A stretch of DNA of 46,143 nt. Origin: Psammoneis japonica. Lineage: Eukaryota. Shown piece after piece: positions 1 to 33,053 of the stretch; position 1 is the first letter of the stretch, and each line of letters opens with the position of its first letter. The notes beneath the pieces were generated by a model. The model was not told where the DNA came from and made no database searches. It was given only the letters and a program-made list of their open reading frames with translations. The stretch lies in the NCBI GenBank assembly GCA_008632985.1, contig QPGO01000225.1, positions 62,001 to 108,143 on the forward strand, in the 5' to 3' direction. A program made the translations under genes and the position numbers.

Positions 1-699
1 GAACAGGATCCCAATGCCACACAATGTGAGACACCTTTAGCCATCTGGTGCAAGGTTCACTTTCAAGCTGCAAGCATTGGAGCATCTTGACCATCCATGG
101 GAACTTTGGGGTGGCCTTCAATGCAGCAATGCAATTGGCACAACAGTGCATGGACCAGAGTTGAGCAAACATTTCAAGGATGCATTCACCCCTTGGCATG
201 CCAATGACTCTGCAGCAGCAGGAAAATTCAACATCCTGCTGATTTTTTCTTGAGAAACTCTCCAAGCCAAAGGCCCCAGGCATGGATGCTGCCCTGCTGT
301 CAACTCCAATGACATCCTGACAGTCCCAGAGTGCAACTTGGAAAAAACACCAGCGCAACATTCTGCCAGTGCCAATCGGTGAGATCTTGGCTGATGACAA
401 CCACCCAAGAGTTGCCCCATCTGCCATCCCAATCAAAATTTTTGGGGCTGTTCATCTGTCATCCCATGGAGTCTGCAGCTCACAACTGCAAAGCAAGTGC
501 TCTCACATGCTCTCCCATGTGATCAAGTCACTCCATGGCTGATCCCAGCCCTCTTCCACAGTCCACTGGGACACACTGCATGCAAAGTGAAATGAGAAGC
601 AGCCAAATGAAAAGTTGAAACACACGAGGAGACCCTCAAAATGACTCTCAGGACTCTGCCAGACCTCAAGGCCAGAGCTGTCAAGCACAGCAGTGTGAC

Positions 700-1200
700 T
701 GTCAGTGCACCCGTCAACACTGAATTGCACGGAACTGTCGCGCCAAGAGTTCTGCAATGCGCTCTTCTTTTTGTGGCATGGCGGCACTCCGCCAGACCTC
801 TCTGAGCACTGCAATCTGATTGGCAAGGCTTGCAAACCTTCCCACACATGCAATGAACCTCTCATCAACCCCGCTGGTTGTTGCATCTCAGGAAGCCCAC
901 ACACCTTCTCTCCAACAAGTCCAAAGATGGCAATCACAAAAATCTTCTTGCCATGAGATTTTAGGACAGAAAGACAGACATGGTGTTGGGCATTCACGCT
1001 CCTGATGAGGGCAAAGTCTTGCCTGTCTGAAACACCAGAAGAGGTCCTGGCAATGCTGTGGCTGGCGTGGCACCCCCAGAGCATTGTAGAGACAATTTTT
1101 GCTTCTTCTCATCTTGGGGCTGCCCACTCTGGCATGCACTGGCGGTGCCCCCCCCCACCAAGCACCACAGCGTGGCAAGACATTGCCACACTGGTGACAA
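700..1200 (+). pseudogene. possible degenerate tyrosine recombinase remnant (DIRS/Ngaro/Crypton-like)
   Basis: Fragments in different frames: ALFFLWHGG (like FFxxRxGE), ILGQKDRHG (like FxxQKN), and SSHL-GAATLACTGGA across a 1-bp shift near 1105-1150 (like HSxRxGAATxAY). Heavily eroded. Confidence 0.3.
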
Positions 1201-4200: not shown

Positions 4201-4429
4201 TCCTTTTTTTGAAAATGCTCTGCACACAAAGCATGCATGCTTTGTGCATCACCAAAGGTCATGCTTTGTGTGTGTTTACTTTTGCTCTCTGTTGAAGCAG
4301 GCATCCGCAGTGACACTGATTTTGCAGAAGCACCCAGTGGAAAATGTGTCTCCCAGCACCTGCATGAGAGGCTTGTTGCTGCAACAAAGACAAGAAGACC
4401 AAAACAAAGAAAAGCTTCAAGGAGGAAAT

Positions 4430-4740
4430 GAAGTTGTTCTGTCAGTCATTGATGAGCAGCAACTTGCACAATGCAACATTCAAAGATGCCAAGGAAAAGA
4501 TTGTCAGCCATGTGCAGAAAGAGCATGGTCAAGGCACATGTCTGGAAAGGTCTCCAGAAGACATGACACATGCAAGTTTTGTTGGTGAGAGACCTGCATT
4601 GGAGATGACAACAACAACAGCAAAAGCACCCAGTGGTGCAATTTGCCAGAGACAGGCAAATGAGAGAGTGCGTGAAAAGAAAGACAGCTTGAGTGTGAGC
4701 ACAAGATCAAGTTGCATGACTGCAATGAGAAAGTGAAGAA
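4430..4740 (+). pseudogene. possible LTR-retrotransposon gag remnant
   Basis: NATFKDAKEKIVSHVQKEHGQG..ERSPEDM resembles the N-terminal Gag region of diatom Copia-type elements as I recall them. No zinc knuckle seen. Confidence 0.3.
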
Positions 4741-4786
4741 GCTTTGTCAGAGAGGCAAGAAAGGGCACATCAGTCACAGGACATTG

Positions 4787-5260
4787 TTTGGCACTTTGAC
4801 CTGGTGAGCGTGCTTTTGCGTTGGCCCATCTCTGATTGAAATGCATGCTCCCTTGCAGCATTGGCAGCTGACCTTTCACATTTTTGTTCTGCAAGGACAC
4901 AACCATTGCTTTGCAACCAAATTGTTTTGTGCTTCAGATGTTTGCTCAAGTGCTTGTGCAACAACAGTCACAACAGCCCAGCACCAACTCACTCAATCAA
5001 ACATTTGCAGTTGCAGCACTTGGGCCATCATTTGGCACTTTGACCTGGCCAGTGTGCTTTTGCATGGCCCATCTCTGATTGAAATGCATGCTCATTTGCA
5101 GCATTGGAAGTTGACCTTTTGCGTTTGCATTTCACATTTTTGTTCTGCAAGGATGCAGCCATTGCCTTGCGACCAAATTGTTTTGTGCTTTGGATCCCAA
5201 TGCAAGTGCTTGTGCAATGACAGTCGCAACAGCCCAGCATCATTTCGCTCAATCAAACAT
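4787..5260. repeat. diverged tandem duplication, two copies of ~220-230 bp (4787-5004, 5031-5260)
   Basis: Both copies start tttggcactttgacctgg and end ctcaatcaaacat, and share gcccatctctgattgaaatgcatgctc and tttcacatttttgttctgcaagga. Confidence 0.9.
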
Positions 5261-6929
5261 GCGCAATTGCACTTTTGTGTTGCCACAGACACTTGCAATC
5301 AGCATTTTTTGAAGGTGTCAATGAAATTTTTGCACTCAATGTTCACACATTGGATGTTGACATGCTCAGTTGTCAGGGCAATGCCCAGAGCAAGGCAAGC
5401 ACAGATCCACTTGGTCTGTTGTGTGAAGCAACTTGCACTGCATTTTTTGGTCCTCACTGCAACACTTCTGTGCGAAATTTTCTGGCTGTCAACTTTTTCT
5501 GACTTTGGCAAAGTTCAAGCAATGTGGACAGAAGGTGCGTTCCCATGAACCCACTTGGTCAGCTGCACAAAGCAACTTCCATTGCAACATTTTGTCCTTG
5601 CTGCAAGACTTCTGTGTGAAAAATTTTTGCTTCATTTCAACTGATGTCATGGGGTGAGATTTTTGCATGCCCCGCAGGTGGCGTGGAGAAATCTCCCAAC
5701 CACCATGATGACTCCCTTTTGACTCTGCTCAAATTGTTCCATCATGACAGAAGTGTGCAAGCTTTTCCTGGCCCTTTTGGAGCAACTGGGAAAGTGAAAG
5801 AGGAGCCACCACAGAAAGACACAGATGACACCTTTTTGATGCACTGTTGTCAGGCAGAGGTGGTGCAGCCAGTCATGAGTCATGATGGAGTGCCCTGCTT
5901 TGTGTTTTTGTGTTGTGTCTGTGTGCAGGAATGCACACACTTGGATCTTGGACAGTTCCTGCATAAAAAGTGTGCCAGCTGATCTCTGGACTGCCCCTCT
6001 TGAGTGCTCACATGCAAGTGTGGACTTTTAAAAATGAAGCCACATGGGAAATGTCTCCAAAAACTGCTGAATTTTTGCAAAGCCATTGTTGTCAAATGTG
6101 TCTGCAGATGAAACATGAGCCAACATGTTTTGTGCTGTTTGAGGCCATGTGCACAAAAACAAAACTTGCTTGCATGATCATGGCAGTTGATTGGAAAGGT
6201 GGGCATTGTGCCATCTGTGCACAATGTGATTTGAGCGAGATCTGGTGCTGTTGCCACATCATCAGCAACAGTGTTTTGGTTGTCCTCTTGGGCAAAATGT
6301 TGCGGTCATCTGCAAGTTGGTGGTTGGCACTTGGTCTTGGCAGTGGCAGCCCAACTCAAGTGAAGCCATTTGTTTTTGCAGAGGGACATGCCAATGCCAT
6401 CATTTCACTGGGGATGCCTGGATCTGATCTGGGATGAAGGGATGCATGATCCTCTTAGCCAACGGTGAGCCCCCAGTGTCTCAGTGATGCTCATTCTTGC
6501 ACTGACATGGTTGCATGCCTCTGAGCATGGCTTTTGCCATTTGTCAGCAGCTGGGCTTGAAGAGATCACACACAATGCTGCTTTGGCCTCTTTGCCAAGC
6601 AGCCCATCACACAACAAGACAAAGGGAGCAAAATGGTGTCATTCCTCAAGTTGAGATGCTCGCACTTCTTCTCTCACTCTGTGAGTTGCTGGAGTTGCCT
6701 CTGGGCTTCCTGAGGTGTGACCAACAGTGGGATTGATGAGGTGCTTGTTGCGCACACAGGAGAGCTTGTGAGCCTTGTTTCTAACCAGGTTGCACAGGTC
6801 TTCATGCACTTTGTCATGTCATGAGATGACTGGACCACCCTTCTTGCACCAAAGGGTGTGGCAGCACTTGGGGAGATTGGGGGGAATGCTGCCATGCTGC
6901 AACATGCTGTGCACAGCTCCAATGATCTG

Positions 6930-7330
6930 GGTGCAGAGGGCTCTCTCTGTCCCTTCTCAATGACCACAAATGGCCAGAGCAGGTTGGGCTCAATGTTTGC
7001 CAACAACTTTGTCATGATCCAATCTTCACCATGCTTGGGTTCTGGCAGCAAAGTCCAAGTGAATGCATTTTGCACACAAGCACTCATCACATCACACTTT
7101 TCCATGGCACCAGTTGTGTGACAGCTGTCAGCATTCTTCCTTCCAACAGTGCCATGAGGCTGGCTTGCTTGTCTTTGGCTGGCCACTCCTCTGTTGGTTT
7201 GCCGCTGTGAGCCACTCCCCCTTTTGTGTGACCATTTGTTCTCTGCTGGAAACACCAGAACAGCAACCATGGCCTTGGTCCTTTCACTCAGAGCCACATC
7301 TTTGATGAATGCTGGTGCAAAATGCACTCA
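6930..7330 (-). mobile_element. Ty1/Copia (CoDi-type) reverse transcriptase fragment, degenerate
   Basis: GHTKGGVAHSGKPTEEW..DKQASLMALLEGRMLTAV (like KGRxVYNGKPTREW..ASPT..ESIxLTAV), then after a frameshift DVMSACVQNAFTWT.LP..KHGEDWIM (like DVMTxDVPNAFIQ..GEERIIM). Confidence 0.8.
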
Positions 7331-7369
7331 GTTGTGGAGCTGTCTGACTGACTTCTTTCTTTGAGGCTC

Positions 7370-8040
7370 CATGCAAGCTGCTTTGGTCTGCCACTTTTTT
7401 AAAGAATGTCTGAAGAGAGTCTGTGGTGCCAGATTTTTGAAAATGCAACCAGCTTCTTTGTGAGCAGTCTCAAGTCCTGTGCACAAAAATTGCTTCACTT
7501 TGAGGAAAGAGCTGCCGCCATCACACACCCAAGCTTGATGACGTGGAAGTTGCTTGGGCAGTGACCAGCTTTGAAGCCAAGGAAAAGAACAAAAAGCAGC
7601 AAGTGACAGCACACTGCAAAAGGCACCTTGAGCACGAGGGAGTGCACGCAAAAGCAACCAGCTTCTTGTGCCCCCAAAATTGCCCAGGGAGGGTGGCTGG
7701 ACCTCCTTGGGTGGCAGAGCATCTTGATCCATTCACCCTCATGTGACATGTGACGTCATCAGCCAATGACCAACAACGTCCCTTTCAACTTGACGCAATG
7801 GCGGAGACAAAAAAAACTGCTCAAGACTTTGAAAGAATTGCCATCATGCAATGACCAAGCTGTGCACTGCGTTGGTTTGTTGCCATTCAAAAAATGTCTG
7901 AAGAAAGTCTCTGCATGTCGAAAGGCTCGTGGCACCCAATTTATGAAAGCACAACTGACTTCTTCATGAGCAGACTCAAATCGTGCATGCAAAAATTGCT
8001 TGAGTTCAAAAGAACTGCCTTCATCACATGCCAAGACCAC
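7370..8040. repeat. diverged direct repeat, ~7370-7550 and ~7855-8040
   Basis: Shared blocks aatgtctgaaga.agtct, cttct...tgagcag.ctcaa, caaaaattgctt and ccatcaca/tcatcaca. Confidence 0.7.
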
Positions 8041-9438
8041 GAGCTGTGTCAGTCTTCCATCTTTTAAAACAATGCCCAAAGAAAGTCTCTGCACATCGAA
8101 GTGCTCATGGCGTCGGATGTTTGAAGACACTCCCATGGAGCGTTGCACTTTTCAGTCTGGCCAGTTGGTTTTTCCATGCAATTTCTGCATGGCACGTAAA
8201 ATTCTACGTGGCCTTGGCACTTGCACAAAGCTCCTCACGATGTGTCGCTCCCCGCTGATGCTTGCCATGGCACCGATGCATTGTCATTTGTTGCACAGTG
8301 CTGAACAGGATTTGGTCAACTTCCACGCAACGGGGTTCACACAAAAGCGACAAATCACAGGAGCAAAATGCAACTGCCAAGGGAGAGAATCTTTAAGTGT
8401 CAAAACTGAGCTGACTTTGCAGAAGCAGCGGCCATCAAATTTGCTGCATGCAGATCCCCACCTTTCCATCTTCATTGAGCATGACAATGGAACAGGCCAC
8501 TGGGCACATTTCGCCATTCTTGTTGAAATGACATGATTCTGCAATCATGCGATCGCCCAAGGCTCCCAGACAATTGTTTTCAAAAGGCTGGGAATCCAAA
8601 ATGAAGCAGACAAGACAAATGGCTGAGCATTCTTGGAGAGCCAACAAGAATGGATGGCCCAAGCACCAATCAGAAATCAGACGCTTCTTGGAAAAGCTTC
8701 CAGAAGGCACTTGCCAAAAGCAGACACAAGCACAAATGAAATTTGTCAAAAAGCATGTTGCACCTCCCTTCCAACAACCAGCTCCACACTGAGAAGAACC
8801 TTTTGTGTGCTGCCTTTAAAGAACTTGGTGCAAGAACATCCTGCAGGCAACAATTTGGTCGGTCTGGCATCCCTTTGAACGGAGATGCACATGCTGTTGA
8901 AACCTTTGGCAGGACGTGGGAAAAGAATGTGAAGGAGCATCTCATCCATCAATCCAGAACAAGCCCAAGTCTCTGCATGCTTGGGTTGGTCAAGTGTTGT
9001 TTCCAGGCATCCCAAATCCAGGTGCAACAAAGAGGAGTGTGTTGCATCAACTTGAAAGACTTCAACTTCACTCCTCTGTCCAATGTTGTTGACATGTCGA
9101 AAGACAAGGCAAAACAAGGGGCAAGAGCTGACACCACAAGAGCAAAAGACGTCAAAGGAATGACGAGCCACAAAACAAAGAACACCTCCCAAGCCGGGAG
9201 TGGTTTGAAGACACAACCAGCTTCTGCATGAGCAGCCATCGAACCCCGAGTCACGACTCCTCGTGAATGAATTTTGATCCTTTCGACTCGACTCTCCTCA
9301 ATTGGTTGAGTCACGACTCGTGAATGATTGATGACCCATTCGACTCGACGCAATGGTGGATTCAAAAACTGCTCAAGACTTTGAAAGAACTGCCATCATG
9401 CAATGACCAAGCTGTGCCCTGTGTCGGTTTGTCGCCAT
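7784..9438. repeat. ~100-bp dispersed direct repeat, 7784-7886 and 9339-9438
   Basis: aaaaactgctcaagactttgaaagaa.tgccatcatgcaatgaccaagctgtgc occurs in both. The left copy has ttcaacttgac where the right has ttcgactcgac. Confidence 0.85.
9248..9350. repeat. two tandem ~60-bp units containing the hairpin motif GAGTC-AC-GACTC
   Basis: gagtcacgactc at 9248 and 9308, each followed by cgtgaatga and later ttcgactcgac. Confidence 0.8.
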
Positions 9439-9439
9439 A

Positions 9440-12290
9440 GTCTCTGACATATTGTGTTGATTCGTTGTATTGTGGATGACATAGACTTAGTATGTGTCGG
9501 ATTTCATTGACGACTGGACGAGCATTCTCAAAGCCCTCCTCCGACAATCTACCATGCCGGTGCATCCGCCACCGTTCTAAAAAGCTGTACACGTGAGCTT
9601 CAAGATGATGAAACTTCAGGAACACACTTACCCAAGATCTCGGTCTGTTGGTTTCTTTTGGGATTTCAGAATCTTTTTGATGCTGCAAGCAAAGGCCGCG
9701 CAACTTTTTCAGAGCTCTCCATCACCTGGCTCTGTTGAAGCATCATGTAAGTTTTGATGCTGGTCATACCATGCATGGCACTGCGCCACATTCTCACAAA
9801 TGGTGTCTCACTTTTCTGAGCTGTCATTCCGTCTGCGTGGCTCAACTCGTAACCGCTGTGCTCAGCGCGAAACCTCACCTGCACCAAAACCTCAAAGCTC
9901 TTGTTGTGTACAAACTCACCTCTCCCTTTTGGCTTCATGCTATTCTTGGAGCAATGTGATTGCACAGATGAGACAAATCGAGTAAGTCCCTCCTGCAACC
10001 TATGCTCCTGTCCCAAGTTCGTCATCACGGTAGCATGATGGCATGCTGCAATTCTTCTCGGAGTCCATGTACATTGTTTCTTCATCTTGGTTCCCACTTG
10101 CCATTTCCCTCTCAAAATCCTTTTCTAATTTCCTTTGGGACTTAACATACTGACTTGAATTCCGTCTCGCCTTGAGCCATCCTGGACACTTCTCCTGATG
10201 CGATTCTCTGCCGCGGCATGTTCACGTTCGACCTCAGCGCTCCACGCTGAATTCTTTTCAATGAAACAAATGCGCTTCCTGATTTCATCAGCAAAATGAG
10301 TGAAAACGCCTTGTGGTGTGTGCATGGCTGTCATCGTTTCCTTGTGAGGTGGCACTCTCAAAAGCGGAGCCTTGTGAACGCTTCCGCATTCAAGTCTGTC
10401 TTCTTTGTTGGATGACGGTACGTTGCCGTTGTGGGTGCGTTCGGCCCACTTTTGGTAAAGCAAGTGATTGGCAAAGTCTCCTTCACGTACAGGGGCTGGT
10501 GTGCATTCGACTGTCACTATCTTATTTTCGACATCCATTTCTTGTATCCATTTGGGGGCGTGGCTTGTAAAGTAAATGTGATCTTCCGCGCAAATCAGTT
10601 ACATTGATTGGATGCAGTACCTTGGCCAGAAACTATCAACGACTGCTTTGTATCGTTGCTCGGAAACCCAACTTTTTGCTGGAATGTCACATTGATGTTT
10701 GCGTTGTCCCCAACTACGAGTTTACCTTCTTCGAATTCATGGCGACACACAATTGGCCCGGTGGCACCGACGGAAAGTCTGAAGCCGTCACAGTCACTAG
10801 AAGTTTCACTGAACTTTACAAACGTGGCAATGAGCTCAATCTTGCTCCCTGTGGCAGTCGTGTAGCTTGACAGATCCAACGTGTCAGGCTGTTCTTCATT
10901 TCTTCTTCCTCTGCCGGCAGAGCGGCATTTGAAAAGGAGGCGTCGACTGCAATGCTGTCAAACGTCAATGAACATTCACCGTCACTGGAAGAGGCGATAA
11001 ACTTGATGGAAGCGCATTTGCAACAGCTGCATCCATTGCCGGCGTCGAATGTGATGATGTGGAGGGCATCGTCCACCAGATCTTGCAAGAATGCTGTCAT
11101 TGGAAACATCACAATACTGTAGGCAGAGGCTCGACGGCTGAACTCGCATTCCGCTGCACACTCGTACTGGCACTGGGGCTGGCAATTTGTCCCTTTATTT
11201 CCGTCTCTGTGATTCGCTATTCGAATCAAAAGGGTGAATGCATCACCTCCTTTGTCACCGCCGAATACTACGACGAGTTCGTTCGTTTCGGAACTGAAGG
11301 ATTCGGATTCCTCGAATTTGCCAGCAACGTGGCATACCTCGGTGAGCTTCTCCAAAACCCGTCGCGGTTGCTTTATCCACCAAAAGCCCTTAAAGCTTTT
11401 TTTGTTTCCATTCTTGTCTATGATCACGGGTTTTAGAGTTGCTCCATGCGCCAAACTCCCTTCTGATTCACATCGTGAGATTATCTTCTTCAGCTGGGTA
11501 GAGAATATTCGAATGTTGAGATGAGCCTGGATAAACCTACTGTCCAGCCGCAGCACTCCGTTTAGACTCATCTTAACGTAGTCCCTAAGCGCTGTGACCT
11601 TTGACTCATCGAGCACGAGATCTTGTGTGCTACATAGAGCATAATCGAAACTGCTTGCAACCAGTTTCAAAAGGGCATGGTCCTCATCGCTGCTCTCTTC
11701 AAGCAATTCAATTACTTGGTTGACTGTCTTTGTTTTCGCTGCAGGTTTTCGTGGTTTTGGCAGCACTGCGTAAAGTCTCTTAGTTTTGCGATTTGCCTTG
11801 TCTAGGACGGTCAACTTCGTGATTGCATTTCCTGTCTTATCGGACAATGATTGCAGAACTGGATGGGCAAGTGCCTGCAGTTCTACAAATGGCAGAAAAT
11901 CCTTCTCAGTGCACACTGTCGCAAGCAACTGTGTTACCATGCCAGCTGCAGGAGAGGAGGGGAAACCCATTTGATCCTTGTTGCAAGCAACGACAAGATT
12001 GCAAGTGCACAATTTGATGAAGTTGGGGTGAAATTGTTCTCATCCCTGAGTTCCAGCATGGTGATGAAGAACGCACCAGAACAATCACCAAGTCTGAGCA
12101 TTGGGAATCTTGCAAGAAGCTTGTTCAAGCAACAATTTCAAATTCTTAGTGAGCACCAAGTCAAATGCCTTCTTGGAGATGTCGAGCTGCTCCAGAAGTG
12201 TGACAGCCTTGGGGAAGCGATTTTTTTGTTTCTTGTTGAGCTTGGGGAGGCCACCACAGTTTCCCAGGTTAAAACTCCCTGCCCTTGATT
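9440..12290 (-). mobile_element. RAG1/Transib/Chapaev-like DDE transposase pseudogene (frameshifted)
   Basis: Consecutive minus-strand ORFs 10816-12012, 10595-10879, 10125-10538, 9666-10115 and 9362-9703 give, in order, VVVFGGDKGG (D1), SNDTK (D2), MHTPQG (like LHxxLG) and KFHHLEAHV..F..RW...GRLSEEGFE (like KxHxL..H...G..SEExxE, catalytic E). Confidence 0.7.
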
Positions 12291-12740
12291 CTTTTCATGT
12301 GAGCAATGAAAGGCTCCAACCAAGCCTCTGTCTCTGTGCCAAAACAAGCCACAAAAAATGTGTTGGTCAGCTGCAGAAAGATTTTCAAAACAGGGTTCCA
12401 AAAAAGTGTCAGTGGCAGCCACAATGTTCTTGCTTCCAACACTTGGTCAAGGCTTCCCATGTGAGCCAACATGTGTCAAGGTTCCTGTGCAGGGCCATCA
12501 CACTGAGTGTTCTCACACCTTTGCCCAACATCTTGCCATGGCTTTCACTCATCAGTCAATGCAATTGCAGTGTGTTTTGCTCACAGATTTTGCACTCTCC
12601 CTCCAATCATCTTCAAGTGACACAAAACAATTTTGGTCACATGATTCAATGCCAATGCCATCACCTCACACAGAACTTGAACTGTGGTGTGCTAAAAAGA
12701 TGTGTTTTTGGCAAAAAAGAAAAGCATTCTGTTGCCTGTG

Positions 12741-13207
12741 GTTGTTGACATCATTGATGGTCAAGGGGCAGGGGGGGACACCAACTCTCAAGAGAGACCT
12801 TGCACAGGAACAGCATGATTTGCCACAGTGATTCTGATGACAATGAAGCTGCAAGATTGTTCTTGATGCTCAGTGCGTTGCAAGTCCTGCTGCCGAAACA
12901 CATGGCAAAAGGCAGATTCTGAGTCTGACAAGTCAATGGCAGAGAAAGTGTCGTTGTTGACAAATGCAGCCACATTTGCAAGCAGCACTGTTGTTTCCAT
13001 GGATGCAACAAGTGACAACACTCCTGACAGCATGAGACAGCATGTTTGCCAAAGCCCAAGGAAGACAAGGGGAAGATCCATTTGGGCTGTAGCCTGTTTG
13101 ACATTCTTAAGAGCCAACACAAGTGTGGTGCTGTTCTTGGTCTGTTGGATCAAAATAAAACCAGCTTTGTGGTGCTTTCATCATCTGCCAAAGGAATGGG
13201 AGGACTC
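12741..13207 (+). pseudogene. hypermutated duplicate of the 5' region and first ~120 codons of the TBC1D23-like gene at 39541
   Basis: Colinear with 39417-39900. ADSESDKSMAEKVSLLTNAATFASSTVVSMDATSDNTPD here matches ADSESNKSTAEKESLSTNVATSASSAAASTDAISNDTPD there. Start codon lost, frameshifts present. Confidence 0.9.
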
Positions 13208-13219
13208 AACGCCACCAAT

Positions 13220-14770
13220 CTCTTGCTGCTGCTGTTGCTGCTGCTGTTGCTTGCTTCTGTGTGCAAGATGCTGTTCTTTCACTCTGCTTTGTCAGGAAGT
13301 GAACAAGCAGACAGCCAAAGGAAGGTGGGTGCTTCTTGGTCCACAAACCCCATCATGCACAGCTGCTCAGCTTCCTTTGTTTGTCTTGCAGGAGCTCCAG
13401 CTTTGGCCACTCTGCACAAAGTGCCACATGCTGGCCAGAGCAAAAAAGCTGCTTGTGGTGAGTTCTTGAGGTTTTCCAGCAGCCCTCCTCTTGGGTGTCA
13501 TGAGGCCTTCTTGAAGCCAGCACAGAGAAGCTGTTTGTGAGTTGAGGTGGCTGTTGAGCTTGTGACAGCACACTCTTTTTCATTGCTTGTTCCCCAGTGC
13601 TGCTCATGTTTGCTGCCACCATTGCTGCTGCCAGCACAGCCTGCAGCACCAGATGTCACTCTCTTCCTTTCAGCATTGTCAGGAAATGAGCAAGCAGGTC
13701 ACCAAAGGAAGGTGAGTGCTTTTCATCTTCTAAACCCACAGTGTGCAGCTGCTCAGTTTCTTGCATGGCTTGAGCTGCAGGAGCTCAAGCTTCAGCCAAA
13801 AGCTGCTTGTGGTGGGCTGAGGTGTTGAGCTTCTGACTGTCCATTCTTTTTCATTGCTTGTTCCCCACTCCTTTTTGTGTTTGCTGTCACAGCTGCTGTT
13901 GCAGCCTGTGCAAGATGTTGTTCTTTCTGCCCTTGTTGTCAGGGAATGAACAAGTCTTGGAAACCAGGTGACTGTCAAAGATGTGACAAGGTGCAGCAAG
14001 ATGTTGTTGTTTGTCCTTTCTGCATTGTCAGGAAACAAGCAAGCAGCTCACCATGTGCTGCACCCTGACAGACATCTGTGGAAAAGGCAAGCACATGCTT
14101 GGCTGCACAGCTGCTCAGCTGCTTGTGTTTTTGCAGCATCAGCTTTTGGTTTTTTCATGATGAACAGAGGCAAAAAACAATTCACAGGCAAGGAGGCCCA
14201 ACCCAACAGCTCCACATTTGACAACCTGCTTGCTTCTGTCAGCAGGATCAAAAACTGTGGGAGGCAAGCAAGCCTGCATGCAAGAGGGGTGCTTGTCATT
14301 TCAGCCACCCTGCACAACACCCACATGATGGCCAGCACAGCTTCCACTGGACTGTTGTTTCCCAGTGCTGCTCATGTTTTTGCTTTTTGCCATTGCTGTT
14401 GCAGCCTGTGCAACATGTTGTTCTTCTTTTCCATGTCATGATCAGGGAATGAACAAGCAGAGCAGAGCACCAAAGCAAGGTGGGTGCTCTTTGGGCTTTT
14501 AAGACCCACCAGCATGTGTGGCTGACAAGCTTCTTGTGCTTGTGTTGCAGGACAAGCTCCAGCTTCAGCGACCTGGCAGAAAACACCAGGTGCTGGCATC
14601 ACAGAAGCTGTTTCTTGCATGCAAAGATGATGAGTTTGTGACAGCCCATTCTTTTTTGTTGCTTGTTTCTCAACGCTGCTCATGTTTTGCCATTGCTGCT
14701 GCAGCCTGTGTAAGATGTTGTTCTTCCTTTCCATGCTGTGTGAGAGAGTGAACAGGCAGGTTGCCAAAGG
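13220..14770. repeat. degenerate satellite-like array of ~5-6 related units (~100-390 bp spacing)
   Basis: Recurrent core gctgctg(tt)gcagcctgtgcaagatgttgttct...ttgtcagg(a/g)a.tgaacaagcag...ccaaag near 13240, 13620, 13890, 14000, 14390 and 14690. A related copy lies near 19860-19940. Confidence 0.7.
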
Positions 14771-16399
14771 AATGTGGGGTGCTCACATTTGGAAAATGTC
14801 GCGGCTCTTGTTCAAAACTCACATTCTCTTGTTCAGGGTTCTGTTTTCTTAACAAGTTCCAAGTGATTGTCAACAAAGGGAACTTGGCAATTGTTTGAAC
14901 ATTCCAAGTGGGATTTAACAGCTGATGCAAATCAGTCTTGTTGTGCACACATCCTTGACAATTCTTTGTGTCTGCTCATTTCAAACCTTCCAAGCAGGAA
15001 ATGACACTCAATGAAATGCGTCACTTGCATCTGTTTCCATCTCAACAACCATGTGTTCGCAACAACATTCTGACATTGTCCACTTCTGACAACCATGATG
15101 TTCAATTGTCCTCCATGCTGCTTGTTGTCTGATGTGCAATTGTTCTGTTTTGTTGTTTCCACACTGCATGCTGCAAAATGCTCCCTTTTTCCTGTTCTTT
15201 TTTTCCTGTGTTCCACCAGTTCCTGTTGTCTTTCACAGTCCCCACACCATGGGTGTGATGTTTTCAGCCCTTGTGGCCTCCCTTGCAACCACTCTTGCTC
15301 TCTCCACAATCATCCACACCAGCAATGACATTGTCCTCCAATGGTCAATCTTGCATTCCTTCTGTTTGGCTGGCCAAAGCATCGCCTGCAAAACTGGAGA
15401 AAAAACTTTGTCTCAATGATCAATTTTTGTGCATGTTTGTGTTTCTTACAATTTTGTTTCATGCACTGCTTCTGCTCACCTTTGTGCCCTTCCCCATTGC
15501 CCATCTTCCATTGCAGCTCAGGACATGTGTCTGGACATCTGTGCACAAAGATGTGCACAAGTGTCAGTCATTTGCTTGTGGGCCCATCTCCATGCATTCG
15601 CCACTTGTTTCCTCTTTCTCACCTTGTGTCCTGCATTTTGTTCCATCCCATTCACAACTCCGCTGCCTGTCACCACTGCTCTCATGCATTGCATGTGACT
15701 TGAGATTGCATTTTTGTGTCTTGTGGGGGGAGTGACAATTCGTGTTTTTGGCCAAAATGCAAGCCTTGCTGTCAGTTGATTCCCACCGGCATCTCTTTTT
15801 CAGCAACAATTTTGTTTTAAAATTCAATCTTTTTGTTGCAATGTGATGGTTCAAATGATTTGAAACAACCTCAATGAATCATTTAGTCATCAATGTCACA
15901 CGCATGCATTCAACAAGTTTGATTTTATCACGTTGATGTGTTCTTGTTAAGATTGGAATTTTCACACTCGTGCCTGCACACTCCCATCTCCAGGACTTCA
16001 ATCAACACCTTTTTTCCAATGACAAAACAAGTGACATCCTCTGGGTTGTCAGGAAAGGGGTCTTGTGGCAACCCAATCAATGGAAGAACAAAGGCAGCAG
16101 ACAACAGACAATGTGTCAGAAATTTCAACAACTCTGATTTCTGACTCTGTTTCAGTGCTGAAGAAAAAGGTCAGCAGCAAATCTTTGGATGGCACAAAGC
16201 TCCAAAGTGATTGGATTGCACAAATTGTGGATTTGCCCTCCTTTGTTTTATTTTCCAAGGTTGCCCAACAACACATGAGTTGCAACAGAAATGGCTCATT
16301 TTGTTCTTGTCCCAGTTCACCATGGACCAGCTGTGCCAACTCCTTTGTTCCCATGGGCAGGAGTGAAAGTGAGGGTGGCATCTTAGAATGTCATGTTTG

Positions 16400-19280
16400 T
16401 CATTGACAGGGCCCAGAGCATTGCATCCAAAACAAATGAAAATTCACAATGTCAACTGGGAAACCTTTGCAATGTTCCGCATGATCCAGCAAGGAGGTGA
16501 CCCACTCCTTGCTGCAATGGCCAGGAACAAAAGGACATGACAGTGTCTCCAGCTGTTTGTTGCCACATTTTACAGACCATGTGGCATTGTTGTGATCCAT
16601 GCTTGTAACCCAAGCAGTCACCAACACAGATTCACATGGTTTGAATCCACTTGCAGGGTCAGTGCATGCACAATTTGATGGTGGAGAGTCAGGACGAGCC
16701 TCTTCCTCTTGTGCATGCAGCCAACCCACCTCCAGCAAATGCTTCTCTGATCATTTCCCAACCACAAGGTCCTCACAGTGGCAATTCATCACATCCAGGT
16801 TGAGCCCATCTTGCCAATGACTTGTGTTTTTAGTGAGTTGCTTCAAAAAAGCATCTTGAGGAGAGCTTCACAGAATCCACCAAAAAAGTGTTGACATTGC
16901 CCCGCTGACGAACATAAAAAAGGAAGTGAAGAAGGACATGGAACTTGGGTGTGCAAAGTCTGGAACAAGAGTGGCACTCTCTGAATGGGCTGACTGCAAA
17001 TCAAAACAATTGGAGATGCTTGAGGATGCATTTCTGAAGCCAAGTGAGAAGAAAGCTTTCCTTGTTGGAGGACATGGACAGTGCTGCATCCAATCCCAAA
17101 GACATGAACATCAGGTGGGAAAGTTGACTCTCCAGTGGCTTGAGGCTTTCATCTTCCTTCGAAAGCATGCCTTTCATTGCACAAGTGTTGCAAGCAACAA
17201 ACCTGGATGCTCTTGGCCAGAAAGATGAGTCTGGTTGGTGACTCCATTCTTGAATGGAGCTCTTGGCACCTTCCAATTGCTTTGCCTCCTGGGTGCATGT
17301 GTGGCAACTCTGAAGCATCTCTCAAACTCAGCTTTGTCAAACAGCTCAGGGAGCTCCTTGAATGTGATGGATGGTCAGTTGTCCATTGTGCATTCCCAGC
17401 AACATGACATTTGCAACACCATGACAACATGTTTTCTGGGACTTGATGCAGGTTGAAGAAGGCATGAAGCAGATGCTTGCAAAGACCAAAGTGCAAGGCA
17501 TGCAACAGGTTCCAGGGGAGCATGACAAAAATGCTGTGCTTTCCTCCACCATGAGAGATGTCCCAAAACATGGGATGAGTGAAGTGCTGAGAAATGTCCT
17601 TGCACTGTTCACAAGCAGCAGCTGCCTTGCCATGATGCCTTTCCTCCTCCATGGCTGTCATGGCAGCCTCCACTGTCTCCTCAATGTTCTCTTGTTCCGC
17701 CAAAATGCAGCCAAACAAGGGATTGTCACCAAAATGCTGTGGTGTGTCACAGTCCCTGTTCATCCAGGAGATGTTGCTTGAATGGGGTTGTGGTGACAAG
17801 CCATGTTGTTGTGACCTTTTTCATGGCTGATTGTTGTGCACGATCAAAAGTGGAGATGAACAAAGCTGAGAGATGGCACCACAATTGGGAAACCAGTCTT
17901 TTGCTTTGACAGTTGAAGCAACTCTGTGAACATCTTGTGCAAAGTGCTGTGGCGGAACTTGATGCATGTCGCCTGTCTGAGCTTTGACTGAAAGTTGGCA
18001 GTGCACTCATTGCTTGTCTTTGGGTGTGGCAGCACCATTCCTGGTGTTGACCAAAGGGAGTGGCTGCAATGACACTCATCATTAAAATTGCCCAATGTCA
18101 CAAGAATGGGTTGTGACTGCAAATGACCCATGTTTTCACAAAGGAGGGTGGAATTGTCAAACAGCACAACTGGGCAAACAAAGTGTGATCCAGTCATTGC
18201 CAAGTTGACCAAGGGAAGATTTGAGAGATCATGCTCCACTTGCTTCCACCAGTTCCAGTGTCAAGAGAGTCACAAATGTGCTTGTTTAGTTTGGGGCAGC
18301 ACTTCTCATTGCACAACCACTGACAAGACTGGACAACCTGGGGATTGCAGAAAACCCTTCTCACACAGTGCAGAAAGGAAAATCAGTGCACATGCATTGG
18401 GGGGAAATCTTGGGGTCCACATGCACTGTGGAGCAAATGTGCTCTGGGCCACCAAAACCAAAATGCTCAGCTTTCAAGAGAGACTTGCACTCACAGCCAC
18501 TCTCCTTGGCATGTTTGGCCCAAAAACAAAAAGCCTTGTACAAACCAGGGGAGAGAAAATGCTTCTTGCACAAACCATGGGAGAGACAATGCTTCTTCAT
18601 CATCACAACCAGCTCTTCCTCCACTGAATGAAGCTTCTTGGTGCTGCTGCTGTTGGTCACACAAATGCATGGAGGTTGCAACAGCTGAGCTTCTTCCATC
18701 TAAGTGTGTCAAAGCAGTGCAGTCCATCATCATCCTTGTCATCATTGGGGAGGGAAGAGGATGACACAGAGTGTTGTGCTGAGAGAACGTCAAACTCCTT
18801 CTCCAGGAAAAAGACATCATCACAGAAGATGCCATCATCAGAAGGGTCTGGGGCAAGAGACCCAACACTGAGTTCTTCTGGCAGTGGTGCATGATGAGAA
18901 TCAACAACATTGTTGTTAAAGGAAAAATCCAATGGCAGTTCATTGGAGAAGGGATCAACATGGGTGGACAATTGAAACTCTTGATCACTGCCATTCTGAA
19001 AAGGCAGGATGGATCACCACCCCAACCAAGAGACAGGGACAAGAATCATTTGGCACTTGAATCAAGGGGAACGGTTGAGAGGCACTGATGCATCAAAAGA
19101 GATGGAGGCACCGTTGTCACACAAAAGTGGTTGGGAGAGGAAGACACATTGTTGAGGCCACAACAAAAGAAAAAAGAGCACTGGGGATGTCTTTGGAAAT
19201 GTTGGTGGAGAGCATGCTGGTCATTGTTGTCAGACATCTGACTGGGACAGAGTGGATTGTGACAGGGGTGCGCCATTGTC
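16400..19280 (-). mobile_element. Plavaka/CACTA-like DNA transposase relic
   Basis: N-terminal CHNPLC...LHQHFQRHPQC zinc finger (~19270), then CPVVLFDNST...LQSQPILVTLGNF, FWDISHGGG..SIF..LPWNLLHALHFGL and RRQSNWKVPRAPFKNGVTNQTHLSGQEHPG (~17200-17295). These match motifs I associate with diatom Plavaka-like transposases. Confidence 0.7.
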
Positions 19281-21919
19281 ATTGGCAGATTTTGGGTTGG
19301 CAGAAAGAGAAGGGATGAAATGCATGCAAACTTAACAAGTTTAATGATGCACACACAAAAAGCAAAACTGGCAACTTAAAACAAGTGAAAACAATTGAAT
19401 CATTTGCAACTTGACAGCCATCAAGAAGAACAGTCAATGTCCGTGTGTGATGAAGATTGACAGAAACAATGGGCAGACATTTAGGAACTTCAATTGTTGA
19501 CAAGCATCGCTCTGGTTCAGCACAGAAACATGTCACAGATGACTCTTTAGTGGGGGAGCAGGCAAGCAGGTCATGACTTGCCAAACTCTGGCTTTCACCT
19601 TCCTGCTTTTGTCAGCAAGAGCCAAAATTGTGGCAGACAAGCAGGCTTGCATGCAAGAGGAGTGCTTGTCAAGAGTCTCAAGCATTGCATTTGCAAGTGT
19701 GGCTCATGTCACAGAGCTTCAAGGAACCTCCCAAATGGCCAAAGTGACAGCAGGCACTCCACATGCAATGAAGGCAATCACTGAGAACCTGTCAAAACCT
19801 GCTTGACTGTGAGTGCAAAATGTGCCACAAAGCATCAAACACACCCAAGTGACAGCTGGTTGTGTGACAAGGCAATGCAAAATGTTGTTTGTCCTTTCCA
19901 TGTTGTCAGGAAATGGACAGGCAGCTTGCCATGTGCCCCCCATCATCACATGCTGGCACAGCTTTCCAGCACATCTTCTTGCCTGTTTTGGTTGTGAGGC
20001 CAAGACCAAGAACATTTCAAGCCCTTCTTTGAGTGACTGGAAATGATTGAGGATTTTTTGAATGACAAAACCAAATGTCACAACATCCTCCTCTCTGGCA
20101 AGCATGCTGGCAGAGATGCATGGTCTCAAATCTGAGCACTGCAGTGTCATTGATGGAAACCCCATTCTGACAACCCAACAATGTTGGCTCACAACTTGCC
20201 AACTGCACTTTGCCAAATTGCAAGCCTGCATCTTTTGTGCTTCTCAAGATCAGCAACTGTTGCCACACAACTTGCATGAAATTCTGCTTGCTGAGTGCAT
20301 GTCAACTTGGCACCAGATTGCATTTTCCCACATGAGATTTGCTTCTCATCACACCAGTTTTGAACATTCTCCAGACTTGGGCTGAAACTTTTGCCCTGGG
20401 AAATGTCAAATGATTCAAGCACGCAGGTTCAACTCTGATGTGCAGAATTTCATCACTGCAGGGTGATTCCAGCCTGCAAAATTTTGTTTGCAACAATGAT
20501 TTGCAACAATGACAAGCCTTTGTGTCCTCTCATGTGTCATCTGGGCTGACACCTGTTGCTCCCTGTTTTGCTGAAGTTGAGCTGTGCCACTCTGTGTCAT
20601 GCAGGGTTTGATGACCCTGTCATTCAACAAATCTGCTGCAAGTCAATGTGGAGATGACATGCGTGGTGCTGATTTGATGCTGCACACAGCATTGCCACCA
20701 GCGCTGTGTGCCACCAGGATTTACAAGTTTGCCTTGTAAATCCTTGGCGCCACATCAGCTCAGTGTGCCTTGCTGTCCCTCAGAGACAATCAGTCAAGTT
20801 GGTTTGTGTCTGTGCACAGCTGTTCTGTCAAACACACAAAAAGCAAAAAAAGTTCATTGCACCTCAAAGAACTGTGCCACCTTTGTCATTCTCCAACATT
20901 GTGGATCATCTGATGGGAGCTCTGTCAGGTGTTTGCTTGGGGTCTCTCTCTCTCTCTGAAATGAACAAACAGATTTGGTGCCACTGATTCTCTGCATCAA
21001 ATGTGACCAACAAGGATGAAAGAAGCTGAGGTGGGAGCTGCTGGTTTGGACATTTGTCCATCTGTTTGACAAATGGCAGGTGCAATTTGTTGGGCCACCT
21101 CCAAAGTGTCAATGACCCCTTGCCTCCTCTCTGCCAGAGCTGCACTGCATGCATGACACAAACTGCTTTTACATTCGCACCTGTGACACACTGTCAAATG
21201 CAACAAGCCTGAAGCTGTTGGCCCTCCCAAGCCGGGGCACCCATGTCTTTGAAGTCACGCTGCTTCACAAATGACGATGGCACACGTGACACATGATGAA
21301 GGGCAGATGTCCTCACAAAAAATTGTGTCATCACGTCATCCTCTGTCTGCCTGCTGCTGGCTCTCTGGTTGATTGGCTGCTTGTGGTTGTGATTGCAGCA
21401 ATGGACAATGGCTGCATTTTGCAGTGGTGCCCATCAATCACATCACCGCTTTGCCTGCCCATCATGATTCTTAACCTGCCCTTGCATTTGTCAGGAGCCT
21501 TCTTCTGACAAGCTCGTCCAAGTCTTTGAGAGATGTTTCCATGTTTCGTTGGGCTTCTTGAGAGCCCCAAATGTGCAACAATGTCATCAAAAGTGTGCAA
21601 AGAGCCACAGTTCCAACTGTGTCAAAGGAGCTCACACAACCAATGTTGCCAGAGAATGGCAGGCAATTGCAAAAGTTGATGGACGGATGGATGAGTCAGT
21701 GGCAAGAGGAAGCTGTTGTTTTGTTCTTGGAAAAACACATCCCAACAAATTCCTCGCTGAATGTCATGTGACACACAATGCCAGTTTTTGATTGTTTGCA
21801 CCACTGGTGGTAAAAATTGAACCTTTCTCTGTTGACTTCTGGAGTTCAGCAGGAGGATGATCCTGCTCATTTTTCCAATGATTGTGGCTGCGCCAGCCAG
21901 CATCGTGAGTCCTCTCACC

Positions 21920-22855
21920 ACTGTCACTGTTCTTGGAGCAGCTGTGGCCTCAACTCTTTTGGACAGTCAAGTGAAGCACCCACTGGCAGATTGACCCATG
22001 ATTGACATGGGCGTTGTCATTGTGATGCTGGCAGGAACACTGTCGGACACCATGCTTCATCAAATCACAAGCAACAAAGTTTTGCTGGTCTTGCTTGTGG
22101 CACTTTGAGCTTCTGTGTTGTGTTGAACTCTTAAAAAAGGCAAAAAAATTACAGTGCCAAAGGCAAGTGCATTGCTCAACTCAAAAAAATGATGGGAATG
22201 TTTTGGCAGAAGCATCTGGGGATCAATGGACAGACCACATGGCTGTCACATTGGCTTGTCAGGCAATGCATGCATTTGAAGGTTTTGCAGCCAAACTGGG
22301 AGGACAGAAGAATGACAAGCAAATGAACAACAGTCAAGATGCAAGAAAGGCCACACTGTTGACTGAAATGATGGAAGAATGAAATTTTGCTCCAAGGTGC
22401 AAAATTGTGGCTGTCTGTGGCATTTTTGCCATGGCTGTCTTTTTCAATGCAACATCAGTTGGCGGAGCTTTCCCCAATCCCCTGGGGTGTTTCATGTGGC
22501 AGCACACTGTTTTGGATGGTGCATGTGGTCATGGTTTCAACTTTGCAAACACTGTTGGGTGCCATGACTCATCAAATCATGAGCAACAAAGTTTTGCAGG
22601 TCTTGCTTGTGGCACTTTTAGCTTCTGTGTCACATCAAATGCTGCTGCTTCTGCTGCAATGCATGCAATCTTTTGATTGATTCATTGGGGCTGTGCTTTG
22701 GTTTGCACAGTGATTGGGTTTGCGGCTTCACTCCTTCAGAAGAAAAGAGTTAAAAGGGACAAGATCAATGGGATTGAGCTCAAAAGAGTGTTGTTCATTG
22801 CATTTGCTGTTGGCAGTGTCGTGCTTCTGTTGGGGATTCTGTTGTGCATCAAATG
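21920..22855 (+). pseudogene. TauE/SafE (TSUP) sulfite-exporter family pseudogene with an internal ~90-bp duplication
   Basis: VTVLGAAVASTLLDSQVKHPLAD*PMID (like NVTxLGGxxAN...KRHPxADRPLID), then hydrophobic segments KVLLVLLVAL and CALVCTVIGFAAS...FIAFAVGSVVLL. 22040-22120 is repeated at 22545-22630. Confidence 0.7.
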
Positions 22856-23375
22856 AATTTTTGTGATTGGGAACATTGCAGAAGATGACGTTGGAGGGCT
22901 CTGTTGTGATTCTTGACTGTGATCAGCAATGGATCAGAAAGGCAAAGATTTGCTCCAAGGCTCACTTGGCACAACTTGAGGTGAAGGTGGTGTCACCATT
23001 GTGGAACATTGTTCTGTGGATGTGCCGCAGAACACAAAAAATCAGAGTTCACGGAGCGCAGGCCTGGAGGCCAGTTGCCTCTGCCGTTGCTCTTGATGCT
23101 GCAGACGAATTTGCACAACACTCTAGCAACACTGCTTGCTCATGGCTCATGCAGCAAATGCAACATTTTGAAAAGGCATCAGCAGTCTTGGACTGCTCCT
23201 TGCTTGGCATCATCATTGATGCATGTCTCCTGAATGACGATGACGAAGCTGAGTGCATCATGGCAGGATGTGGCTCCAGCCGGAAGAAGGGAGCAGTGGC
23301 CCAGAACAGCAAGAATGATGGGTCATCCGTTGACAACCCAAAAGGCAGGAACAGGAGAGAAAATCCACTCATGGC

Positions 23376-23376
23376 N
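23376..23376. other. single N, probable scaffold/contig join
   Basis: atggcNtctg; the sequences on either side appear unrelated. Confidence 0.7.
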
Positions 23377-23833: not shown

Positions 23834-25598
23834 ACGTAGGTAGCTCTTTATAAACTGTGTAGGAAATGTACCAGGGTTTGTGTAGAATTTGATAACGACA
23901 CAATTCCATTTTGATAGCGACAAGTAGAAACCTACATGGTTTTCCAGTTCAAATTTGATAGCGACGCCACAGACGGAATCATTGTCAACGTCCCAATCAC
24001 CGCATTATTATAGGTTTTCGATCATAGGGAATTCCTTATTTGGCGCTGAATTTCCTAGACAAGGAAATATAAGAAATAAGAAAAGGAAAAAATAATTAGT
24101 GATTCAATGCGTGGTTGCAACCGTCATGAACCTTTCATCTAGAAGTTGATTTGCACAGAGCCTGTGGCTGCCAAAACACCTCTTTTTGTGCAATGCACTC
24201 AATGAGTGAGGCAGACACCATTGGGAGGCACTTTCTCAAGGACAAAAAGATGTGCTTCCATGGTCTCTTCAAGTGTGATCTGCTCCAAGCAAGCCAACAA
24301 AAGCTCAAATTGGTGTGGCAAATCTGGTGCACATTGTGCAACAAAACAAAAGAGGAAAGCCTCTTTGTTTTCTTCATTTAACAAGCCAATGAGAGGGAAA
24401 TCAAGATGTGAGCATGAGCGAGGTTTTGGGCCATGGGGGGCTCATCTCTCAGCAGCCCCAAAATTTCCTCGGATGAAAGGAAAATTTCCCGCACTTGTTT
24501 GGTGCCAGTTGTGACCAACACAGTCCTTTCATCTTGCAGCCAACATTGTGCTCCACTCATCTCTGTTGGATGGCCAGCACAGAGCACAGCTGCTGCAGCA
24601 CTTCAAGCAGCCTGCCACTGTGAGGGGGGCAGATGGCTCCTTTCCTTTTGCAATCATTTTTTCATGCAGAGCTGGCAGAAATGCCATTTGACTGCAGTGG
24701 CACAGCTGCGTGATGTGGCCCAATGCCAACATCATGAGAGGAGGCCAGCACCCACTGTGCTGGCGGTGGCTGGCTGGCTGGGCTGTGCCTCGCAGCTGGT
24801 CTTGCCAGCACAGCACCACAAACAAGCACATTTCCTTTGACACCAAACCACAGGAAAATGCACTCTTGATTGCTTGTCTCTTGTGTTGCAGCAGGCAGAT
24901 CCTTTCCTTTTGCACAGCCATTTTTCACAGAGAGCTGGCTGCTGGATTGCCGAGCAACCTTGGCGCTGCTGCTCACAGGCACAGTGTGACAGCAGAACCT
25001 GACACCTGATTGCTGAAAGTCAGCCTTCAATCTGTCTGGTGCAAACTCAAATTGAAGTGCACAAGCTGTGAGAGCTGAGAGCCTGAGTCTTGTGGCAAAA
25101 CCGCGCAAAGGGCCTTTGTGTTTGCCCTGCTTGCTTGGGTTTTTTCCTGCTGTGCCTCTCTTTTCGCTGGTGCACTTGCCAAAGAGAAACAGCACAGCAT
25201 GCTGATCATCAGCAATTTTGGCAGGAAAGGTTTGGCAGCAAAAACAGAACATTGGCTGTTGCTGTGCAAGTTGTGAAAATGTGCAGTCTGGGCAGCGGCA
25301 CAGCTGCAGGAAGGAGCTTTTGTTGTTCATTTTTGGGTTTTCTCTTGTGTCTCTTGCAATTGACAAACTTGTCACAGCAAAATGTGGATGTCATGCATTG
25401 ACATTTTTGGCAGGAAAAGGTTTGGTGGTAAGATCAAACATCGGTTGTTGCCGCATCATGGTTGGTTTGTTTTTGTCGCAGCAGCATGAATGTCGTGAAA
25501 CGTCTGTCCATCGTACGTGCGAATTGAACGTATGGCGTTTTCTCCTCCCCCTCCTCCTTTTCCTCTCTTTTTTTTCATAAACTCGGAGCTACCTACGT
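23834..25598. mobile_element. putative non-autonomous DNA element bounded by a 13-bp perfect inverted repeat
   Basis: acgtaggtagctc (23834-23846) is the reverse complement of gagctacctacgt (25586-25598). It can be read as a 9-bp TIR plus an ACGT target duplication, or as a TA duplication. Confidence 0.35.
24130..25440. other. small CpG/TpA-depleted hypermutated block C
   Basis: Same TG/CA-rich, TA-poor composition, flanked on both sides by short TA/CG-rich sequence. Confidence 0.85.
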
Positions 25599-30863: not shown

Positions 30864-30869
30864 CCGACG

Positions 30870-33052: not shown

Positions 33053-33053
33053 N

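Follow-up and report, generated by a model that had tools for sequence, protein, structure and literature searches.

The stretch of DNA considered here, hereafter the window, comprises 46,143 nucleotides of contig QPGO01000225.1 (positions 62,001 to 108,143, deposited as Psammoneis japonica). It is a mosaic which contains four blocks nearly without the dinucleotides TpA and CpG, with TpG and CpA nearly doubled and the G+C content unchanged (about 0.44-0.52). The few TpA steps (TA) still present in these blocks are accompanied by a 5' T or a 3' A far beyond chance, and the effect grows with the length of the adjoining A/T tract. The blocks are probably old mobile-element DNA that was rewritten by TpA hypermutation with graded shielding by A/T tracts, together with a slower decay of CpG. 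The context-dependent removal of TpA is real and adds a new detail to a type of process that is already known.

Loss of TpA and the flanks of the residual sites

The depleted blocks (coordinates in Table 1; 23,053 bp in total) were compared with the normal, i.e., non-depleted parts of the window at 9300-11900, 25500-35900 and 39300-46143 (19,846 bp in total). In the pooled blocks, the observed/expected ratio (O/E) amounts to 0.04 for TA, 0.12 for CG and 1.85 each for TG and CA, compared to 0.62 for TA and 0.96 for CG in the normal parts. The density of TA is 2.9/kb in the blocks vs 42.4/kb in normal DNA. Marked drops concern only TA (-39.6/kb) and CG (-47.1/kb), and only CA (+44.6/kb) and TG (+39.3/kb) rise. 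Almost no half-converted DNA occurs in between, as 49 of 92 bins feature a TA O/E below 0.12 and only three fall between 0.12 and 0.30.

For the interval 11900-22800, the initial annotation of the window had reported roughly 40 TA, all but two of which carried a flanking 5' T or 3' A. The full count yields 42 sites, 40 of them flanked in this way, and the two exceptions are those it had named (ctgTAgcc at 13090 and ttgTAcaa at 18539). It had further estimated that about half of the sites would lack a flank by chance, which agrees well with the expected share of TA steps without 5' T and without 3' A (VTAB) of 0.54 under a mononucleotide and 0.45 under a first-order Markov model. Against the expectation from the interval's own composition, two VTAB among 42 sites correspond to a binomial p of 1.5e-8. 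The same pattern had been described for 1-7750 and was found there as well, with a single VTAB (ttgTAgag at 1087) among 16 TA (p=6.5e-4). Taking all four blocks together, 3 of the 66 residual TA are VTAB, compared to 540 of 842 in the normal parts (Fisher p=4.4e-23). TTAA alone accounts for 24 of the 66 sites (6.9 expected), a word which is under-represented in normal DNA (32 vs 73.8 expected). Survival is thus not uniform across the NTAN flank classes, whose comparison between depleted and normal DNA had been suggested as a check; in the blocks, VTAB reaches 0.5% of the density per kb that it has in normal DNA, VTAA 7.6%, TTAB 18% and TTAA 65%. Within the bins whose TA O/E exceeds 0.12, the share of VTAB is 0.60-0.64, except for 0.78 in two bins above 0.9.

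The protection is graded. Sorted by the longest A-run abutting the step on either strand, the counts in depleted vs normal DNA are 3 vs 540 without a run (relative density 0.005), 15 vs 196 for a run of one (0.066), 20 vs 87 for two (0.20), 16 vs 13 for three (1.06) and 12 vs 6 for at least four (1.7), with A-runs being generally 1.5-fold commoner in the blocks than in normal DNA. Likewise, the frequency of A at positions +1, +2, +3 and +4 of the residual TA is 0.66, 0.55, 0.51 and 0.35, and reaches background by +5. A mutator preferring the 4-mer VTAB had been proposed initially. Its context dependence and the whole-site rule by which either flank protects have stood, but the limitation to four bases has to be abandoned in favor of a gradation extending to about +3/+4. 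Where one flank is protective, survival also depends on the base at the other flank, increasing from T (6 depleted vs 101 normal) over C (15 vs 110) to G (18 vs 59; chi-square p=0.0016), and G at +1 is mildly protective.

Conversion on both strands and decay of CpG

Conversion can be followed directly in a pair of paralogous sequences, one within block 2 and one in a normal part of the window (Table 1). Out of 10 TA in the unmutated copy, 5 appear as CA, 4 as TG and 1 as GA in the depleted copy, i.e., TG or CA at 9 of 10 sites, and its 29 CG read TG (13), CA (13), TA (1), GG (1) and CT (1), i.e., TG or CA at 26 of 29. The differences of the pair are nearly all transitions, since the identity climbs strongly when both copies are written in purine/pyrimidine code (values in Table 1). 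The pair also bears out the earlier statement that flanked sites are not immune: ttTAcc (39537) reads ttTGcc in the depleted copy at 12785-13208, and the agTAac sites at 39723 and 39524 read agTGac and agGAac, respectively. A purine/pyrimidine-coded search of the window against itself yielded this one sizeable mutated/unmutated pair only, plus a pair of about 113 bp without any TA.

Beyond the pair, the gain of TG+CA can be set against the loss of TA+CG for each flank class. Per kb, gain and loss are 49.8 vs 48.4 for VxxB, 15.6 vs 15.0 for TxxB, 15.2 vs 17.6 for VxxA and 3.2 vs 5.6 for TxxA. As gains roughly balance losses in every class, VTAB sites were once present in the blocks and were then converted. 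The imbalance |TG-CA|/(TG+CA) does not exceed 0.17 in 24 of 25 block bins, the exception being an end bin of 201 bp, and the sign of the bias varies. Since TG and CA are nearly equal and no consistent sign is found, the process acts on both DNA strands.

A rule operating on each strand separately was examined, according to which A is edited in 5'-TAB-3' and not in TAA, so that TTAB would become TTGB and VTAA would become VCAA. Such an independent trinucleotide or '+1 base' rule was rejected, as it predicts 17.7 VTAB survivors compared to the 3 observed. A better fit is obtained when the site is treated as a whole, so that a flank on either side is sufficient to shield the step. Because the per-strand rule over-predicts the VTAB survivors, one flank shields both strands of the step.

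The loss of CpG accompanies that of TpA, with a Spearman correlation of 0.78 between TA O/E and CG O/E over the 92 bins. Nevertheless, the margin zones of the blocks (Table 1), when pooled, feature a TA O/E of 0.04 and a CG O/E of 0.47. Conversion of TA is thus faster than, and separable from, the decay of CpG, as margins without TA keep about half of their CpG. The flank trend of CpG is moreover reversed: 18% of VCGB and 3% of TCGA are kept, AT-flanked CpG being lost most. Due to this opposite trend, the pattern of TA is not a general weak-duplex effect.

An independent DNA run (X1) contains 79% of the window's words; it was the only DNA run found, and no RNA run was among those listed. Judged from its sequence, this run represents a different strain or haplotype, and TA and CG steps are the main variation among the differences listed. 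At 80% likeness, 40 of 1812 differences are listed, 9 of them being TA vs TG/CA and 14 CG vs TG/CA (23 together). Over 3000-22999, the divergence between the window and the near-identical contigs of X1 is about 0.2-0.6%. Within 9717-11741, the window reads TG and X1 reads TA at four of eight listed differences, namely at 9737 (TTAA), 9956 (ATAT), 10853 (GTAG) and 11741 (CTAC). Three of these four TA/TG sites in 9300-11900 are VTAB. Both the TA and the CG process seem, from these differences, to be recent or ongoing.

Proposed process and alternative explanations

The features demonstrated above, i.e., transitions, dinucleotide targets, strand symmetry, block structure, graded flank dependence and mass balance, would find a common explanation if the blocks derived from old mobile elements (a retroelement and a Plavaka-type DNA transposon, along with further repeats) in which two DNA-level transition processes rewrote both strands. 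One of them would be a hypermutation directed at TpA, which turns it into TpG or CpA and for which direct measurements exist in Bigelowiella natans, and the other a slower decay of CpG to TpG/CpA, most simply via cytosine methylation of the same silenced domains. Essentially every TpA would be erased unless an A-tract adjoins 3' or a T-tract adjoins 5', with protection rising from about 10-fold for a single tract base to about 40-fold for two and becoming near-complete from three bases onwards. The flank would shield both strands of the TpA step, and the most permissive neighbour would be a 3' pyrimidine (T > C > G >> A). Today's TA would then reflect rare new TA balanced by context-dependent removal, and this balance would be the reason why the residual sites are nearly all TTA/TAA. 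We infer that the chemistry is adenine deamination, for which an ADAT2-like candidate has been proposed in B. natans, rather than thymine modification, and that the flank effect resides in the editing enzyme and not in repair; a preference of the mutator and a preference of opposing repair cannot be distinguished from sequence alone. The loss of CpG is presumably due to methylation.

The closest precedent is found in mutation-accumulation lines of B. natans, for which the preprint reports 231 mutations in integrated giant-virus and virophage regions. Of these, 230 were transitions from A to G or from T to C, without exception at TpA; their rate was about 6e-7 per site and generation, and the mutation rate of the regions was raised roughly 1000-fold. 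The same source describes 124 clusters in the genome that are TpA-poor and CpA+TpG-rich as well as an enrichment of DDE and RT (reverse transcriptase) domains among low-TpA genes, and proposes an ADAT2-like adenine deaminase as the cause (Mettrop et al., bioRxiv 10.64898/2026.01.13.699255). As far as the preprint's text allows a comparison, the window resembles this system in the transitions at TpA to TpG/CpA on either strand, in the long-term signature (TpA-poor, CpA+TpG-rich, with DDE/RT domains in the affected DNA) and in the confinement to discrete foreign or mobile DNA, represented here by four sharply bordered blocks with reverse transcriptase and Plavaka relics that are highly repeated in X1. 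It differs by a nearly complete conversion (TA O/E 0.04 vs 0.45 in the B. natans insert of a nucleocytoplasmic large DNA virus), by transposon relics in place of a giant-virus insert, and by adding the loss of CpG in the same blocks and a graded A/T-tract flank rule. The main text of the preprint contains neither a flank rule nor a loss of CpG, although the image of its Fig. 2B and the supplements may bear on this (bioRxiv 10.64898/2026.01.13.699255). A literature search revealed no further report of hypermutation from TpA to TpG/CpA besides this preprint, and none of the papers listed for B. natans in combination with DNA methylation named that species.

Other known systems share parts of the pattern. 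Repeat-induced point mutation (RIP) of ascomycete fungi is likewise a regional transition hypermutation of repeats at the DNA level which prefers a dinucleotide and produces sharply delimited blocks. Nevertheless, it converts CpA to TpA and thereby raises TpA and AT. It is excluded here by a TpA O/E of 0.04, a CpA O/E of 1.85 and the unchanged G+C content. Methylation-driven CpG decay, as in vertebrates, plants and many protists, resembles the change of CpG to TpG/CpA in the blocks (CG O/E 0.12 vs 0.96), but leaves the loss of TpA and the margins which lack TA and keep half of their CpG unexplained.

Several points weigh against the proposed process. Residual TA at 13090 and 13156 read CA and CG in the unmutated copy, and that at 13108 lies within a 2-bp indel. 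Position 7942 reads TT in two paralogs and 22619 reads GA in a paralog. Residual TA at 13731 and 14500 are common to two copies, a third copy reading CA, and those at 14711 and 8065 face CA in paralogs. Only these, i.e., 13731/14500, 14711 and 8065, look ancestral, so the flank bias was measured on a mixed population. The survival figures presume that the blocks once matched the composition of today's normal parts, and the near absence of intermediate bins precludes a kinetic measure of the conversion rate by context. Furthermore, the gain of TTGB+VCAA is 19.9/kb vs 10.0/kb for TCAB+VTGA, and the difference of 9.95/kb (bootstrap 95% interval 4.4-15.8; 11.6 predicted) fits the per-strand rule that A at +1 blocks editing; an asymmetric decay of CpG could explain this product bias equally well. 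Judging from the paralogs, about half of the polarisable residual TA are newly made. The initial annotation had named a new creation of the residual TA by homopolymer slippage or sequencing error among the observations that would overturn its claim; error is contradicted by the agreeing contigs of X1, whereas creation applies to several sites. The residue is accordingly a balance of rare creation and context-dependent removal and not a pure remnant.

This leads to the question of whether creation by itself could generate the bias. TpA might have been removed completely and without regard to context by a process that has now stopped, and the present TA might have been made later at the edges of A/T runs, e.g., through C-to-T changes in CAAAA, T-to-A changes within T-runs, or indels. 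The newly made sites (13090, 13108, 13156 and 7942 among the half just mentioned) and the 28 of 66 residual TA that adjoin an A/T run of at least 3 would suit such a history, which is nonetheless improbable. The 30 TAAAA on both strands would require the conversion of about 10% of 298 CAAAA+TGAAA sites, and an equal rate at 2796 VCAB+VTGB sites would result in hundreds of VTAB, compared to the 3 observed. New TA arising evenly from the present CA/TG sites would give 52.6% VTAB, and 4.5% are observed (p=5e-17). Relative to normal DNA, TAAAA has a density of 1.36, which matches the value of 1.5 for the remaining NAAAA words and is what simple retention would lead one to expect. Moreover, the demonstrably new TA at 13090 is VTAB, so that creation is not restricted to runs, and the TA/TG polymorphism against X1 suggests a recent process rather than one that stopped long ago. 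It is scarcely credible, furthermore, that the residual TA represent homopolymer errors of sequencing or assembly, or TTA/TAA kept as functional signals. Many residual TA do touch homopolymer runs, but homopolymer errors alter the length of a run and do not make TA. In addition, 22 residual TA are covered by near-identical X1 contigs (0.2-0.6% divergent from the window) with no listed difference at these sites, 27 of 32 differences of these contigs being listed and at most 5 unlisted. Since the blocks are decayed repeats without detectable intact genes, a site-by-site selection is unlikely, too.

A different chemistry would be a modification of thymine, in which an oxidase of the TET/JBP type marks the T of TpA in silenced repeats and the oxidised T pairs with G, resulting in T to C. 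The flank rule would then become 'T not preceded by T'. This reading is unlikely, yet thymine oxidation remains a live chemical alternative to adenine deamination, as A to G on one strand equals T to C on the other and both are inseparable by sequence. 5-Hydroxymethyluracil (5hmU) or 5-formyluracil may cause T to C at such rates. Dinoflagellates, which use such marks, are represented among the named relatives of the window's SASA gene, but relics of the dinoflagellate spliced leader are not above chance in the window (6 matches at 3 mismatches vs 3.1 expected). In the available text on Crypthecodinium, 5hmU is a thymine mark that prefers TA and TC, lies mostly in repeats, including transposable elements, and overlaps 5-methylcytosine (PMC11572971), an overlap which parallels the joint loss of TA and CG described above. 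The same text treats 5hmU as an epigenetic mark and does not report it as mutagenic (PMC11572971), and its second target TC is barely altered here (62.0/kb in the blocks vs 68.5/kb in normal DNA) while TA is erased. A base-resolution map in Breviolum, as far as it is described in the part of the study consulted, gave no sequence motif for 5hmU (PMC11071213).

Finally, transposon transcripts might have been edited at the RNA level by an ADAR-type enzyme and copied back into DNA, which is very improbable. ADARs act on RNA duplexes and prefer a 5' U together with a 3' G. The 3' order found here (T > C > G >> A) makes G the second most protective base and thus differs from this preference. Both strands are affected equally, and the DNA-transposon relic and non-coding repeats were converted as well. 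The reverse transcriptase relic in block 4 would supply the means of copying, and a 5' U is favoured by ADARs according to the B. natans authors; in their lines, however, the insert that acquired the mutations was single-copy and was altered in situ (bioRxiv 10.64898/2026.01.13.699255).

A hypermutation that targets specifically the TpA of invading DNA became known in 2026, from a single alga. The window would show transposons on which such a process has run to its end, probably in an organism other than B. natans. It adds testable properties, i.e., the graded A/T-tract protection, the 3' order T > C > G >> A and a decay of CpG that is co-located yet separable. These properties constrain the editor by arguing against an ADAR-like neighbour preference and against a simple dependence on duplex breathing. 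Besides, they provide a signature for genome scans that is sharper than TpA depletion alone, with VTAB absent and TTAA and TAAAA kept. A more far-reaching and rather doubtful reading is that a second protist lineage runs a TpA-erasing defence of the B. natans type to completion on transposons, with an editor that reads the helix for about 4 bp to either side of the step, is stopped by the geometry of A-tracts and acts on the same domains as CpG methylation. If this were true, there would be an editor of natural origin that reads duplex DNA, converts A:T to G:C specifically at TA and has a defined footprint, and the flank rule would serve as a diagnostic in the search for the enzyme as well as in screening other genomes for the process.

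Mobile elements, repeats and genes of the window

Relics of mobile elements were found by Pfam matches of the six-frame open reading frames (ORFs) of the blocks (Table 1), and no intact gene was detected in the blocks by this approach. The reverse transcriptase relic reads Cys (3), His (2) and Leu (1) at the six aligned positions where L001, a metagenomic relative that is not mutated (43% identity, TA O/E 0.72), carries Tyr. The change of Tyr to Cys and His is the expectation from TAY to TGY/CAY. This distant relative was the only one obtained in a metagenome scan with the relic. The depth of X1 contigs reaches up to about 1300 over block 2, compared to about 60-120 for single-copy parts, and contigs stack to about 10-20 times the single-copy depth over 8.3-9.7 kb and 15.0-19.7 kb, which therefore represent dispersed repeats.

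Table 1. Positions of the depleted blocks, their margins and further features in the window (TA, CG, TG and CA values are O/E unless given as counts).
Feature	Position	Strand	Remarks
TA/CG-free block 1	1..7700	.	TA O/E 0.00-0.07, CG 0.07-0.23, TG/CA 1.6-2.1; 16 TA, 1 VTAB (1087)
Margin zone	7750..9350	.	6 TA, O/E 0.05, 5/6 flanked; 45 CG, O/E 0.51
Mildly TA-poor 'normal' stretch	9351..11900	.	TA O/E 0.41, CG 0.83; VTAB 40/70 TA
TA/CG-free block 2	11950..22900	.	42 TA, 2 VTAB over 11900-22800; highly repeated in genome
Hypermutated copy of 39501-39901	12785..13208	+	425-column alignment; identity 73%, 90.6% in purine/pyrimidine code
Plavaka-type (KDZ) DNA-transposon transposase relic, block 2	17847..18260	-	Pfam PF18759, E 9e-6, just under gathering score
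Margin	22900..23120	.	0 TA, 5 CG (O/E 0.38)
TA/CG-free block 3	24200..25400	.	single TA, flanked (attTAaca at 24379)
Margin	35700..36100	.	0 TA, 10 CG (O/E 0.39)
TA/CG-free block 4	36000..39200	.	8 TA, flanked 8/8
Reverse transcriptase relic, block 4	36846..37484	-	Pfam RVT_1, E 3.9e-12; 1 Tyr in 213 aa
Unmutated paralog of 12785-13208	39501..39901	+	all 10 TA and 29 CG altered in depleted copy
SASA (sialate O-acetylesterase) domain ORF, intact-looking, 404 aa	44606..45820	-	Pfam

Dozens of overlapping ORFs of 100-250 aa occur on both strands of the depleted DNA (1-25400 and 36000-39200), nearly all without a family match. These long ORFs are spurious and fill the blocks because the loss of TA deletes the stops TAA and TAG (and nearly all Tyr codons). 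Accordingly, gene finders would over-call in TA-free blocks, which has to be considered during annotation. Between depleted stretches, an island of about 1 kb at 23124-24140 features a roughly normal composition with many VTAB and CG and an N at 23376, and may have been inserted more recently into hypermutated DNA of an old block.

In the normal parts, Pfam matches comprise only DDE_1, SASA and a weak DUF1280, and 15 ORFs of these parts gave no match in PHROGs. Neither a tRNA nor an Rfam family was found in the window, and a scan of viral_contigs with the ORF at 41087-42064 gave no relative. Two direct repeats of 169 bp (32889-33057 and 35697-35865; 99% identical and 2808 bp apart) bracket an ORF for a DDE_1 transposase (33304-34188, minus strand) and a second ORF (34232-35158, minus strand). 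The repeat-bracketed unit at 32889-35865 looks like a young mobile element and, unlike the old relics, is not hypermutated (TA O/E about 0.5-0.6, CG about 1.0). The closest relatives of the SASA ORF are metagenomic (47-49% identical), followed by haptophyte, dinoflagellate, choanoflagellate and diatom proteins; for the SASA and DDE ORFs alike, no relative above about 50% identity was present in the searched collection. Elsewhere, six tandem copies of a 69-bp unit (26767-27264; 62-92% identity to the reference copy) lie within an open frame of 573 aa without a Pfam match (25771-27492, plus strand). At the end of the window, the final 143 bases (46001-46143) become abruptly AT-rich, with a G+C content of 0.33 and a TA O/E of 1.43.

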